Assembly (NCBI GenBank): GCA_944386775.1
Contig: CALXCJ010000002.1
Coordinates: 221 to 64,220 of the forward strand
Reading direction: 5' to 3'
DNA from: an uncultured Clostridia bacterium
GTDB taxonomy: Bacteria; Bacillota; Clostridia; TANB77; CAG-508
Length of the DNA stretch: 64,000 bases
The position numbers were made by a program, and so were the translations under genes. Below, one piece after another: positions 16,222 through 50,611 of this stretch. Each line of letters opens with the position of its first letter. Positions within the stretch are counted from its first letter, which is position 1. The notes beneath the pieces are model-generated. The model was not told where the DNA came from. It searched no databases and saw only the letters and a list, made by a program, of their open reading frames with translations.

Positions 16222-16415
16222 ATAATTAAGTATAAGACTTAATTATAAACATCAAATCCAGCATTTTCCCATTCTTCATAGGATTTAGCGCTCCAAAATT
16301 TCAAATTTTTTATTTCTTTTTTTAATTATTAACTTAATATTGACTTAAAACAAAATTAGTGGTATAAAATACTTAACAAATTTTTTCAAAATAATTAATT
16401 CTTATACTTAATTAC
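16222..16415. promoter_or_regulatory. Candidate invertible promoter (inverton 1), assembled in the OFF orientation relative to the LRR gene
   Basis: Site ATAATTAAG-TATAAGA-CTTAATTAT (16222-16246) matches the reverse complement of 16391-16415 at 23/25 positions, with the 7-bp core exactly inverted. The internal promoter TTGACT-17-TATAAA (16340-16368) fires rightwards, away from the gene. Confidence 0.65.
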
Positions 16416-16488
16416 AACCTCTAAAATAGCCAACCCCATTGTATTTTCACATATATTTAATAATCCTAATTAAAAATCTTTAGAAATT

Positions 16489-16520
16489 AAAAAAACCGTT
16501 TTATCTTTTAACTTAAAACG
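16489..16520 (-). terminator. Terminator of the spoIIIA operon
   Basis: CGTTTTA (16497-16503) pairs with TAAAACG (16514-16520). On the minus strand the hairpin is followed by GTTTTTTTAATTT. Confidence 0.6.
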
Positions 16521-16573
16521 ATTTTCTATTTATAAATCAAATTTTTAAATTACACCCTACTGCCAAACCGCAA

Positions 16574-17407
16574 TTATTTTATAGCAATATGTATATTCTC
16601 TATAGACGCATTCAATTCACGAGATATTATATTTTGAATCTGTGCCACATCCTCTTCTTTTAATTCTGTAGCTCCAATTATTACTGTAACACTATCACCA
16701 TTTACAAAAATCACATTTTTATCAAATCCTTTAGTTCCAATTAAATTCTCACAAATCATAATACTATTTTTAGTATTATTTATTTTTGTAATTTCCTCTG
16801 TTGCAGATTGTTTTTGAACTTCTAAAGCATTTGTGCTATTTAATACTTTTTCATATGTTTCTATCATTTGAGAATACATTGATTCTCTTTCTAACTTAGA
16901 GTTTGTAAAATAGCTATCATCCGCTGTTTTTGAGCTTGTTTCAACAGTAGTATTTTGATTTTGTCCATTTTGATTTTGCACGTTTTCTTGATCTTCTCCT
17001 GACTTTTCTTCTTCGTTTGCTAAGTCTTGTGTATTTTCTCCATTTTCTGAAACTTTGGTTTCTGAGGCTTGATTTCCTGAAACTTGATTTTGTGTAGAAT
17101 TTGAGTTTTCACTAGTTTGCACGCTTTCTCCATTTGCCAAATTGTTATTTGTGTTATTCTCTGTATTTTGTGCATCATTTACATTTTCGGTATTTGTTTG
17201 ATTTTCTGCACTTTCATTGTTTTCTGAAATATTGCTACTTACTAATTGCGCATCTCCAATATTTGATGATCTTGATTCATCTACTACATTCGAATTTGCT
17301 AAAATACTTTTTGCTGGATCTGTTGTTGTATAGTTTAAATATCCTGCTACTACTAGCATTAATGCAATTACATATATAACAACTTGGTTTTTCTTAAAAA
17401 ATTTCAT
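16574..17407 (-). CDS. spoIIIAH: Stage III sporulation protein AH
   Basis: N-terminus MKFFKKNQVVIYVIALMLVVAGYLNY is typical of SpoIIIAH. It has a low-complexity Asn/Glu-rich linker and a C-terminal YscJ-like domain, and is the last gene of the operon. Confidence 0.8.
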   Translation of the reverse strand: MKFFKKNQVVIYVIALMLVVAGYLNYTTTDPAKSILANSNVVDESRSSNIGDAQLVSSNISENNESAENQTNTENVNDAQNTENNTNNNLANGESVQTSENSNSTQNQVSGNQASETKVSENGENTQDLANEEEKSGEDQENVQNQNGQNQNTTVETSSKTADDSYFTNSKLERESMYSQMIETYEKVLNSTNALEVQKQSATEEITKINNTKNSIMICENLIGTKGFDKNVIFVNGDSVTVIIGATELKEEDVAQIQNIISRELNASIENIHIAIK

Positions 17408-17501
17408 AGTTTAACCCCTCCAATAATAAATTTTATATTATATTTTTTTAACAATTTATTTTAAAGCACAAATTATAGGAATTTTATTTTTCTTAATACT
17501 T

Positions 17502-17576
17502 GCATTTCAAATACTTATATTTGTTCCATTTCAAATGCTTGTATTTTATTTCATCTCAAATACTTGTATTTTATGT
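17502..17576. repeat. Three 25-bp tandem units, the last being the spoIIIAG 3' end
   Basis: The units are GCATTTCAAATACTTATATTTGTTC, CATTTCAAATGCTTGTATTTTATTT and CATCTCAAATACTTGTATTTTATGT. The third encodes HKIQVFEMK before the stop codon at 17546-17548. Confidence 0.75.
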
Positions 17577-48392: not shown

Positions 48393-48432
48393 ATGTAGAA
48401 AAATGACATTTTCATTTGTCATTTTCCTACAT
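48393..48432 (-). terminator. 16-bp-stem hairpin (second terminator or operator) upstream of the acc promoter
   Basis: ATGTAGAAAAATGACA pairs with TGTCATTTTCCTACAT with one mismatch. On the minus strand it is followed by ATTTTAATTTT. Confidence 0.45.
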
Positions 48433-48570
48433 AAAATTATACTATTTACAATAGAGCTACTTTAAAATTAATGACAAAAACTCACATGTCCACATCTTCT
48501 TGAGAATTTCTAATTATTTTTTCTTATCAGCTCTAATATTATATACAGATTTTTAAAAACTTCCTCTTAT

Positions 48571-48595
48571 TACAAAAGACAGGAAAATCCTGTCT
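48571..48595 (-). terminator. Terminator of the second GLUG gene
   Basis: AGACAGG pairs with CCTGTCT around a 5-nt loop. On the minus strand it is followed by TTTGTAAT. Confidence 0.55.
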
Positions 48596-48602
48596 AAATC
48601 AA

Positions 48603-50300
48603 TCATTGCCAATATAGTATAGGGTATCTATTATTTATATTATTTGTGTCTTCTTTAAAACTATTTCCTAATGTTACATATAAACTTTGTAATTCTAAAC
48701 TTGTTTTAAAAGAACACTCATTTCCTATTATAGAATTGTTGACTCCGCATAAATCTGTTGTTACGTTTTCTAGAGAATATGAATTATAAATCTTTCCAAT
48801 ATATGTTGTATCTGTTTCTGCATAATAAAATTCATTATTATTTCCAACTAAACTTCCTTTTTTCTCTATTTCTCCATTAACATTTCCAACATTATAGCTA
48901 TTTTCTAATGTTCCTCTATTTAGTCCTATTAATCCTCCAACACATTCATATAAACCTGTTACTGCACCTGTATTATAGCAATTCATAATATTGGATTCAT
49001 TCATTCCAACTAATCCGCCAATATTAGAATTGCCATTTTCATTCTGACCTATCGCTTTTATGTCTCCTGCATTGTAACATTGACTTATTAAAGTATTTAC
49101 AGAATTATATCCACATATTCCACCTACATAGTATTGTGCCTCTACATCTCCAGTTGTATAACAATTATTTATAGCTGATTTTTCTCCTAAATATCCTGTT
49201 ATACCTCCTACCATATTTTCACCATTAACAATTCCTGTATTATAACAATTTACTGCATTTGAATTTAGGTTAACACTACCAACTACTCCTCCTACATGCA
49301 TAGTTCCTGTAACTTCTCCTATATTATAACATTCTTTTATATTAGAATCTTGAGCAACATATCCTGCCACTCCTCCTGTAAATTCACTTGTTCCATTTAT
49401 TCTACCTTCATTATGGCCATTTGTTATAATTGTATTAACATATGCACATCCTACAATTCCAGCACCATATGTTGAATTTATGTTTGCATTATTAGAGCAA
49501 TTGCTTATTACACTATTATTATAAGCATATCCAACAATTGCTGCTGTTGCACTTCCACCAGTTATGTTGCAATTTTCACCTATATTTAAATTAATAACTT
49601 TTCCACTATCTATGAGACCAAACAGCCCTTGTACTTTATTGGTTGTATTTATATAAATTCCATCTACATTATGATTTTTGCCATCAAATATCCCACTAAA
49701 AGGAATATTTGATTCATTATCAGGTGATGAATTTTCATTTAGATATAATCCTATAGGTACCCATAGTTCATTTATATCTAAAGTTATATCATTTACTAAA
49801 TATATATACCAGCCATTATAACTATTTCCTTCATTTACCTTATCTCTAAAATTCTTCAATTCATCTACTGTACTTATTTTTAACATATTTTCTTCTGATA
49901 TTACTTGTTTTTCATCTACATAATACATTCTTTTAGTATCATTCATATTTACTATAAAACTTCCATCACAATTATCTGTAACTGTGAAGTCTTTATTTTT
50001 TCCAAACTGATCTTTTATTGAATTTTCTAGACTTTCTTTTGTTATTTTAAATGTATCAAGATCCTCCATCTTGCTAGACGTTGCAGCCAGTTCAAGTCCT
50101 TCTTTTTCCTGTGTTTTTTCTGTTTTATTCTTACTTTCACTAGCTCTAGTTAAAATTCCATTTTCCCCAGTTAGTGTCGCTATTGCTACTCCTGCAAGGA
50201 TTAGTAAAACTACAATTGTAATTACCAACGCCACCAAAGTAATCCCTCTTTTACCTTTTGTTTTTTCTTTCGTTTCTCTCCCAATTCTTAATTTTTCCAT
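48603..50300 (-). CDS. GLUG-repeat surface protein with pilin-like N-terminal module (paralog)
   Basis: N-terminus MEKLRIGRETKEKTKGKRGITLVALVITIVVLLILAGVAIATLTGENGIL, then repeats of the type VGGI.G......I.NCYN.G.V. Start set at ATG 50300 directly after GGAGGAAAAA. The track ORF uses an upstream TTG. Confidence 0.8.
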   Translation of the reverse strand: MEKLRIGRETKEKTKGKRGITLVALVITIVVLLILAGVAIATLTGENGILTRASESKNKTEKTQEKEGLELAATSSKMEDLDTFKITKESLENSIKDQFGKNKDFTVTDNCDGSFIVNMNDTKRMYYVDEKQVISEENMLKISTVDELKNFRDKVNEGNSYNGWYIYLVNDITLDINELWVPIGLYLNENSSPDNESNIPFSGIFDGKNHNVDGIYINTTNKVQGLFGLIDSGKVINLNIGENCNITGGSATAAIVGYAYNNSVISNCSNNANINSTYGAGIVGCAYVNTIITNGHNEGRINGTSEFTGGVAGYVAQDSNIKECYNIGEVTGTMHVGGVVGSVNLNSNAVNCYNTGIVNGENMVGGITGYLGEKSAINNCYTTGDVEAQYYVGGICGYNSVNTLISQCYNAGDIKAIGQNENGNSNIGGLVGMNESNIMNCYNTGAVTGLYECVGGLIGLNRGTLENSYNVGNVNGEIEKKGSLVGNNNEFYYAETDTTYIGKIYNSYSLENVTTDLCGVNNSIIGNECSFKTSLELQSLYVTLGNSFKEDTNNINNRYPILYWQ

Positions 50301-50418
50301 TTTTTCCTCCAATATTATTTTTTATTAATTTCATTTAATAAAATATCATATTTTTTACTTCCTGTCCATTATTTTTTATCATATTGAATGATATTTTTGT
50401 TTGAATTATACTAATTTT

Positions 50419-50611
50419 ATAATTAAGCTAGAAAATTAATTAAAATTACAAATTTATACTTTGCTACTGAGTAAAGATTTTTCACTAGAATTATTAATAT
50501 TTTTTTAATTTTAAAATAATAATATCCATTCATAATATATTGACTTTTTTTATTTAAAATGCTATATATTTAATTAATATTAAAATATCATTAATTTTCT
50601 AGATTAATTAA
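50419..50611. promoter_or_regulatory. Candidate invertible promoter (inverton 3), OFF relative to the second GLUG gene
   Basis: ATAATTAAG-CTAGAAA-ATTAATTAA (50419-50443) matches the reverse complement of ATCATTAAT-TTTCTAG-ATTAATTAA (50587-50611) at 21/25 positions, with the core exactly inverted. Internal promoter TTGACT-17-TATATA (50540-50568) fires rightwards. Confidence 0.6.

Follow-up and report, generated by a model that had tools for sequence, protein, structure and literature searches.

Invertible promoters that serve dispersed surface-protein genes have been described in several bacteria, and three such systems come close to the one considered here, a set of three cassettes of 193–194 bp in a 64,000-nt stretch of DNA (hereafter the window) from an uncultured Clostridia bacterium of the CAG-508 lineage (GCA_944386775.1, contig CALXCJ010000002.1, positions 221 to 64,220, forward strand). 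The closest functional parallel is the mpl (P35) family of Mycoplasma penetrans, in which most of the 38 surface lipoprotein genes are described as having an invertible promoter of their own (Horino et al. 2003, as cited in PMC2268961). Like the cassettes here, these are short per-gene promoter cassettes of a dispersed surface-protein gene family, independently ON or OFF, and the genes for candidate tyrosine recombinases do not accompany the individual switches (PMC2268961). The organism is unrelated and the analogy is one of function only; unlike mpl, the cassettes here have 25-bp sites of a 9-7-9 plan with covarying centres, and the predicted targets are pilin-like adhesins, not lipoproteins. 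Clostridioides difficile, likewise a member of Clostridia, has RecV-dependent switches (cwpV/Cdi1, flgB/Cdi4, and others), short invertible segments upstream of surface or motility genes for which RecV is a master tyrosine recombinase encoded elsewhere (PMC5903667). There, seven sites with mostly unrelated inverted repeats are handled by several recombinases, whereas dozens of switches here share one arm consensus and one cassette plan. In Bacteroides fragilis, a single trans-acting serine recombinase, Mpi, is described as acting on at least 13 scattered invertible promoters that have a repeat motif in common (PMC5903667), which shows that a genome can carry shared sites at many loci and do without private cores. 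Mpi is a serine enzyme, whereas the covarying 7-bp centre of the present sites argues for tyrosine-type exchange.

Tyrosine recombinases swap strands across the overlap between two arms, whereas serine invertases exchange only the central 2-bp overhang. Core sites of the former class, such as loxP (13-8-13), FRT (13-8-13), dif (11-6-11), and the lambda attB core (about 9-7-9), consist of inverted arms around a short asymmetric overlap, and strand exchange is efficient only when the partners have the same overlap. At 7 bp, the overlap here has the length of the lambda Int overlap, with no sequence similarity to lox, FRT, dif, or attB, and unlike those sites, the same arms carry 17 natural overlap sequences. 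Site-specific inversion also varies the type IV pilin-like adhesin that is made by the R64 shufflon (Rci) and by Moraxella Piv; these systems rearrange coding segments of one gene, whereas complete genes, each with its own promoter switch, are concerned here. Neither the arm motif nor invertons upstream of pilin-like genes in Clostridia were found in the literature searched. The mechanism is familiar and the switch family appears to be undescribed; its peculiarities are that a single arm set occurs with many natural overlaps and that its cargo is pilin-headed adhesins.

Anatomy of the three cassettes

At all three loci, two 25-bp sites in inverted orientation, each made of a 9-bp arm, a 7-bp centre, and a second 9-bp arm, enclose a cassette that holds one predicted promoter. 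Switch 1 (16222..16415, 194 bp including both sites) aligns with 28 homologous cassettes of related genomes. Its gene-proximal site (16222..16246) is ATAATTAAG-TATAAGA-CTTAATTAT, with 0 mismatches and 16/16 arm positions, and its distal site (16391..16415) is ATAATTAAT-TCTTATA-CTTAATTAC, the centre being the reverse complement of the proximal one. The promoter lies on the plus strand at 16340..16368 (TTGACT, 17 nt including TGG, TATAAA), within the conserved promoter column block of the cassette alignment. Switch 2 (43510..43703, 194 bp) has ATAATTAAG-CAAAAAA-CTTAATTAT as the gene-proximal site (43510..43534), TTAATTAAT-TTTTTTG-CTTAATTAC as the distal site (43679..43703), and a plus-strand promoter at 43632..43660 (TTGACA, 17 nt including TGC, TATATG). 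Switch 3 (50419..50611, 193 bp) is bounded by ATAATTAAG-CTAGAAA-ATTAATTAA (50419..50443) on the gene side and by ATCATTAAT-TTTCTAG-ATTAATTAA (50587..50611) distally, the latter having the weakest arms (13/16 positions), and carries its promoter on the plus strand at 50540..50568 (TTGACT, 17 nt including TGC, TATATA). The centres of each locus are exact reverse complements (TATAAGA/TCTTATA, CAAAAAA/TTTTTTG, CTAGAAA/TTTCTAG), and all three promoters have a TGN extended −10 element and stand 22, 18, and 18 nt from the distal site. A simple promoter scanner misses them only because none of the three −10 elements ends in the T that it requires.

A chance origin of the sites is excluded, since matches far exceed expectation. 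In a mismatch-tolerant pattern search of the window for ATAATTAAG-N7-CTTAATTAT at ≤3 mismatches, five of the six sites are matched where 0.65 are expected, and when arms are scored against shuffled sequence, 5 sites reach ≥15/16 positions against 0.01 expected in the 64 kb. The same arm scoring finds no further arm-matching site in the window outside the three switches. The preliminary description of this DNA had reported three loci with shared 9-bp arms, 7-bp centres, and lengths of 194, 194, and 193 bp, a TTGAC(T/A)-17-TATA promoter 18–22 nt inside the distal site at each, and centres that differ between loci and are reverse-complementary within each (TATAAGA, CAAAAAA, CTAGAAA); direct reading of the sequence, together with the pattern search for the sites, bears out all of this.

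Each of the three loci is very probably an invertible promoter switch (inverton). A short segment lies between inverted 25-bp sites, 193–194 bp in all, at 3/3 loci, and by sequence prediction the promoter is able to face the adjacent gene in one orientation only. In the mechanism proposed, a site-specific recombinase encoded elsewhere, most likely of the tyrosine class, would bind to the 9-bp arms common to the sites and swap strands inside the 7-bp centre, and one strong sigma-A-type promoter near one cassette end would flip with the cassette between the two inverted 25-bp sites. When ON, the promoter would face the gene; when OFF, it would face the terminator of the upstream gene. The centre would have to match within one switch and need not be unique to the locus.

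Related cassettes and the logic of their sites

A two-site pattern with exact arms, free centres (positions 10–16 unconstrained), and sites 131–161 nt apart was scanned against one genome per prokaryotic species (185,579 genomes). It returns 51 loci, 49 of which fall in five metagenome-assembled genomes (MAGs) of uncultured gut Clostridia from rabbit, Hadza human, and other gut sources. Altogether 56 switches are at hand, 53 in the five MAGs (19 in Lapin-018 bin73, 14 in E13 bin139, 12 in ERR3414591_bin.48, 7 in the Hadza MAG, and 1 in Lapin-028 bin79) and 3 in the window, and the counts per genome are lower bounds because the pattern demanded exact arms. The window belongs to none of the five MAGs; its fab/acc genes are 83–93% identical to those of E13 and ERR3414591_bin.48 (ERR). 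Control scans of Joint Genome Institute (JGI) metagenomes and viral contigs with the same pattern bring up nothing but unrelated sequences (direct repeats, tandem repeats, long palindromes), with no pilin-like gene beside any JGI match and no conserved promoter in the register of the switch family in either set. The three window loci belong to a genome-wide switch family, with about 12–19 or more members per genome in relatives and nearly all of them OFF in consensus assemblies. Such numbers are high beside those of surveyed Clostridia-like gut isolates, whose genomes have about 3 invertons in the median (PMC11892184).

In the group to which the window belongs (window, E13, and ERR; 29 aligned cassettes), the first ~110 nt vary freely and the sole conserved interior block is the promoter ATATTGACt-N14-TGcTATAtt, present in 27 of the 29; L006 lacks the block, and L022 has a degraded −10 element. 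In Lapin-018 and the Hadza MAG, the order is site, terminator-like hairpin (−13 to −20 kcal/mol, z about −5), promoter, site. A predicted promoter that is fixed relative to one site amid free sequence is the expected look of an invertible promoter element.

The centre equals that of the partner site in 55 of the 56 switches, with 17 distinct centres, whereas 31 match on average, and at most 39, when partners are shuffled inside each genome. Outside positions 1–27, the two cassette ends are no more alike than chance, so that the inverted repeat stops at the site edges. The switch next to fabI in E13 (L042) carries CTAAAAA/TTTTTAG where the window has CAAAAAA/TTTTTTG, both sites having changed. 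The arms of Lapin-018 are perfect palindromes, TTAATTAAG-N7-CTTAATTAA. Those of the window's group (29 switches) are asymmetric: next to the centre, the outer arm has G and the inner arm in most cases A (read as T on the distal site). ON copies of this group (L029, L046) and OFF copies show the same asymmetry, which places the crossover in the centre. The 9-7-9 sites have the layout of tyrosine-recombinase cores, with two inverted arms around an asymmetric overlap within the usual 6–8 bp, and the overlap is identical between partners in 55/56 switches across all 17 overlaps. Two expectations of the preliminary description, that the sites follow the arm-spacer-arm layout of such cores and that the centre must match the partner site, are thereby upheld in the three loci and their relatives. 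Shared arms with a pair-matched 7-bp centre fit strand exchange across an overlap, and for this reason the enzyme is most likely a tyrosine recombinase, as far as site sequences can tell.

A serine invertase of the Hin/Gin or Bacteroides Mpi type could in principle flip the switches instead, and the at least 13 dispersed promoter regions ascribed to Mpi (PMC5903667) offer a precedent for one such enzyme at many loci. A 2-bp exchange, however, gives no reason for partners to covary at all 7 centre positions, and the sites have an odd length (25 bp) with a base in the middle, not a dinucleotide step. Sites with dyad symmetry, a 2-bp crossover, and a match only there are not what is found. A phmmer search with Hin also finds no resolvase-type open reading frame (ORF) in the window or the 51 loci, a weak argument for an enzyme that acts in trans. 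A serine invertase is therefore considered improbable, and a tyrosine recombinase remains the preferred agent.

That the centres must match within a switch does not mean that they are private to it. According to the preliminary description, private centres would let one recombinase flip each switch independently, with inversions or deletions between loci blocked by spacer non-homology. The three window centres are indeed all different, the near-perfect partner match indicates that centre homology matters, and the family as a whole has 17 centres. As a rule, however, the idea is not borne out, since one centre dominates in each relative, on identical arms: TACAATA in 14/19 switches of Lapin-018 bin73, TATAAAA in 9/12 of ERR3414591_bin.48 and 7/14 of E13 bin139, and CTTTTAG in 7/7 of the Hadza MAG. 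Even tandem neighbours 1.9–2.3 kb apart carry identical sites (switches 1 and 2 of L049, L019, and L004). Three distinct centres in a sample of three are not significant and are weak evidence for privacy, and private centres are accordingly judged unlikely. It is similarly doubtful, although conceivable, that the centres of this lineage are diverging under selection into mutually orthogonal lox-like pairs for a single recombinase, perhaps with rates of their own, with the shared-centre relatives representing an ancestral, non-insulated state. Since relatives share centres, even between tandem neighbours, insulation between loci does not depend on private centres, and because identical sites at many loci are tolerated, something beyond spacer identity must confine recombination to one switch.

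Orientation and flipping of the switches

All three window promoters are on the plus strand and their target genes on the minus strand; all three switches are OFF, because the promoters point away from the genes they could serve. Evidence of flipping comes from paralogous switch-gene modules, in which the alignment of the gene-side flanks was compared with that of the cassette interiors. Among 158 paralogue comparisons, 136 are concordant and 22 inverted, and all 22 trace to three switches in which the promoter faces the gene (ON), namely L010 of Lapin-018, L046 of E13, and L029 of ERR. Flipping the L010 cassette in silico raises its identity to the paralogue L004 from 251/347 to 316/343, with the strand change exactly at the 25-bp sites, and the same operation improves L046 from 226/362 to 257/358 and L029 from 259/375 to 304/355. 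By ORF layout, 31 of the 35 scorable switches are OFF and 4 ON, the others being cut or ambiguous; two of the 4 ON calls depend on small spurious ORFs at cut locus ends. The ON state is confirmed by flank homology for L010, L046, and L029, while L014 faces a non-pilin gene.

For the window loci themselves, two independent same-strain metagenome assemblies are available, found by exact-protein look-up with AccC, glycogen debranching enzyme (GDE), and a DUF4143 ATPase; look-ups with the leucine-rich repeat (LRR), SpoIIIAH, FabI, and GLUG proteins gave no exact matches. Both assemblies are 99.9–100% identical to the window and collinear through all three switches, all of which are OFF. Their contigs end inside a paralogous GLUG gene, not at a switch. 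In three related genomes, paralogous switches occur in both orientations and the breakpoints coincide with the sites; at the window loci, OFF alone is seen. Comparison of paralogous sequences thus documents natural flips, and for the three particular window loci we infer switching.

One could also read the palindromic 25-bp sites as operators of a dimeric regulator that bracket a fixed promoter, with nothing inverting. With a near-perfect inverted repeat of 9 bp around a 7-bp spacer, each site has a geometry typical of operators. Such a regulator, however, supplies no reason for reverse-complementary spacers in 55/56 switches, and it leaves unexplained both the cassettes that are flipped relative to homologous flanks and the promoters that face away from the sole nearby gene in 31/35 scorable cases. 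Operators are for these reasons an extremely unlikely account, and the cassettes continue to be treated as invertible switches.

Target genes, recombinase candidates, and the probable adhesin repertoire

Type IV pilins carry a class III signal, in which G precedes F/I-T-L-I-E and a hydrophobic helix. Among flanking genes of ≥180 amino acids (aa) that read away from a switch opposite the promoter, nearly all start with (K/R)G-I-T-L-I-A-L plus a hydrophobic helix, in the fuller form (K/R)G-I-T-L-I-A-L-V-I-T-I-I-V-L-L-I-L-A-G...GENGIL, and the domains that follow vary: LRR_4, BspA-type LRR_5, GLUG, SpaA, or none recognised. To the left of every window switch lies a large gene transcribed away from it, the switch being 68–115 nt upstream. 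The target of switch 1 (13921..16107, minus strand) encodes 728 aa with the pilin-like N-terminal segment NAITLIALIVTIIVLLILAG and LRRs (Pfam LRR_4, 5e-28; internalin-like by NCBIfam). Within it, at 15952–16076, an 18-bp (54-bp) tandem repeat encodes a Lys/Glu-rich stretch before the pilin-like motif; because the leader is unusually long (~54 aa), the true start codon may lie downstream. The target of switch 2 (41820..43442, minus strand) encodes 540 aa with the pilin-like N-terminus IGITLIALVITVIVLLILAG and GLUG repeats (Pfam Glug, 4e-22), and that of switch 3 (48603..50312, minus strand) encodes 569 aa with RGITLVALVITIVVLLILAG and GLUG motifs, as called from Pfam and the N-terminal motif. 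One N-terminal homologue of the switch-2 target is named pseudopilin PulG by JGI. A prepilin peptidase (Peptidase_A24) gene is present in a related genome (L086, 3146–3898), and a homologous region exists in L004 of Lapin-018; Peptidase_A24 is not present in the 64-kb window. From their sequences, we infer that the targets are pilin-like adhesins displayed on the surface or on pili, and the switch family is probably a phase-variable adhesin repertoire.

A fourth pilin-like gene in the window (56387–56866, minus strand; 159 aa, GVTLIALAITIIVLLILAS) is without a switch upstream. A pilin N-terminus tops its four weak PDB matches (E 0.1–0.3), and the adjoining ORF (57074–57502, minus strand) has a weak LPXTG-anchor match. 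The switched adhesins might use the 159-aa protein as a structural subunit. At L014 (5114–6014, ERR3414591_bin.48), the switch promoter faces a 185-aa gene whose N-terminus resembles DtxR/MntR-type regulators and is not pilin-like; this gene is a possible regulatory target of the switch family.

The cassettes might alternatively be copies of a miniature inverted-repeat transposable element (MITE) of the Correia-like kind, whose ends would be 25-bp inverted repeats and whose promoter would read outward, and not programmed switches. Each genome has many similar copies of ~193–204 bp with terminal inverted repeats, those within Lapin-018 bin73 are highly alike, and at the accC-GDE position presence varies between relatives. 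Yet there are no target-site duplications, nor any excess of 2–8 bp direct repeats at offsets 0–2, and dispersal regardless of gene is not found either: the assignable flanking gene is almost always pilin-like and 40–150 nt away in fixed geometry, except at L014 (the DtxR-like regulator gene) and at L022 (426 nt upstream of accC, no pilin-like gene). Homology extends to the flanks, into the leaders and N-termini of the paralogous genes, so the switch copies have spread with their genes. Finally, covariation of the centres has no role in transposon ends, and the flips are precise between sites. A MITE origin is accordingly very unlikely, and programmed promoter switches remain the better description.

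The enzyme is expected to act in trans, given that the arms are common to all loci and no recombinase is encoded nearby. The preliminary description had drawn the same natural inference and had reported no recombinase gene in the 64 kb, only a truncated Rpn-family remnant. Both observations hold: phmmer searches of all ORFs ≥90 aa with XerD, FimB, and Hin queries and Pfam scans of the main ORFs find no recombinase gene in the window, and the remnant is, as described, of the Rpn/PDDEXK_2 type (50891–51289). The fab/acc genes outside the Pfam scans (38883–41621 and 44841–46651) are assigned to families of fatty-acid synthesis by the gene calls for locus L081 of the same strain. Clustering of all ORFs from the 51 loci reveals no recurrent non-target gene family near switches, and the only tyrosine recombinases in the ~400 kb of switch-flanking DNA are encoded at L020, L008, and L028. 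The first is a bona fide XerD. The second, 1.7 kb from a switch, is a housekeeping XerC-like gene, 75–79% identical across thousands of Clostridia, and its adjacency is judged coincidental. The third is rejected as the invertase; it is the accessory integrase of a multicopy IS91-family element, followed by the Zn_Tnp_IS91/Y2_Tnp transposase, and its homologues lie on many contigs of 1–3 kb, seven of these contexts being without switch sites. The IS91-family element itself (L028 1482–2502; L074–L080), with its accessory tyrosine recombinase of 285 aa and Zn_Tnp_IS91/Y2_Tnp downstream, is highly multicopy in these gut metagenomes (contigs 70–100% identical) and truncates a switched pilin-like gene in L028. 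In the related genome GCA_029782595.1 (L086 9762–10390), syntenic with L004 of Lapin-018, the pilin-like gene linked to GlyRS is without a switch and is preceded by an ordinary fixed promoter of the extended −10 type; the genome is a useful contrast for tracing the recombinase by phylogenetic profile.

Several points weigh against the picture of phase-variable, pilin-headed adhesins. The promoter activity of the cassettes is a prediction from sequence. No second orientation is seen at the three window loci in the consensus of three assemblies, where a minority orientation would be invisible. The N-terminus of the targets resembles type IV prepilins and pseudopilins with Ala in place of the canonical Glu+5, it receives no Pfam or NCBIfam call, and PDB sequence matches of the switch-2 target are only to type IV pilin N-termini and are weak (E 0.1–0.3, about 0.2). 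The recombinase for the switches was not identified in the window or in the ~400 kb of switch-flanking DNA.

On the right of the window switches lie the 3′ ends of unrelated genes, spoIIIAH, fabI, and the Rpn/PDDEXK_2 remnant, which comes after the gene for GDE. Hairpins on the minus strand stand between these genes and the cassettes: a terminator-like hairpin of spoIIIAH at 16490..16527 (−9.9 kcal/mol, z = −2.4, then a U-run), between the upstream operon and switch 1; the terminator hairpin of fabI at 43763..43818 (−19.2 kcal/mol, z = −4.8), between the fab/acc genes and switch 2; and a hairpin at 50818..50864 (−18.4 kcal/mol, z = −2.5), between the Rpn remnant and switch 3. Relatives differ by an indel of the complete switch-3 module (48400–51300), made up of the switch, the GLUG gene, and the Rpn/PDDEXK_2 remnant. 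E13 (L042 5254–5461) has the GDE gene ~200 bp from accC without the module, and ERR (L022 6757–7453) has at the accC-GDE position a switch with a degraded −10 element and no pilin-like gene. AAA_14/DUF4143 ATPase genes occur twice in the window (12431–13765 and 27065–28408, both on the minus strand), the former directly downstream of the switch-1 target, and one also adjoins a switch in the Hadza MAG (L008 2368–3675); their position near switches is probably a coincidence.

The genes of the window are nearly all on the minus strand (GC content ~27%), and the rest of it is housekeeping: nrdD/nrdG, lexA, murT/cobQ-like genes, the spoIIIA operon, fab/acc, murB, thrS, ABC transporters, and a two-component system. 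The intergenic regions hold an unusually large number of tandem repeats (7547–7741, 19034–19275, 20473–20636, 46730–46960, 56257–56378, 57752–57863, and 58970–59106; periods 18–88, 2.4–8 copies), examples being a palindromic 38-bp array between the cobQ-like and HNH genes and a 43-bp array of 5.3 copies between accC and accD. The SpoIIIAE ORF (19408–19998, minus strand) spans only profile positions 83–243 of 321 and has tandem repeat arrays on its flanks; the gene may be fragmented or mis-started. No Rfam family scores above threshold in the window, including no T-box upstream of thrS (59199–61139; region 61140–61880), and a tRNA scan finds no tRNA genes there.

For work on site-specific recombination, one arm consensus with 17 overlaps amounts to a natural experiment in site design and a ready panel for the recombinase hunt and for tests of spacer orthogonality, in a family where identical sites are tolerated at many loci, including neighbours ~2 kb apart. 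For the biology of the organisms, the family would mean that an uncultured clade of Clostridia from animal and human guts has a large set of pilin-headed adhesins (LRR, GLUG, SpaA), most of them silent and each behind its own switch, a pattern which suggests that these bacteria colonise by varying adhesins or antigens a few at a time.

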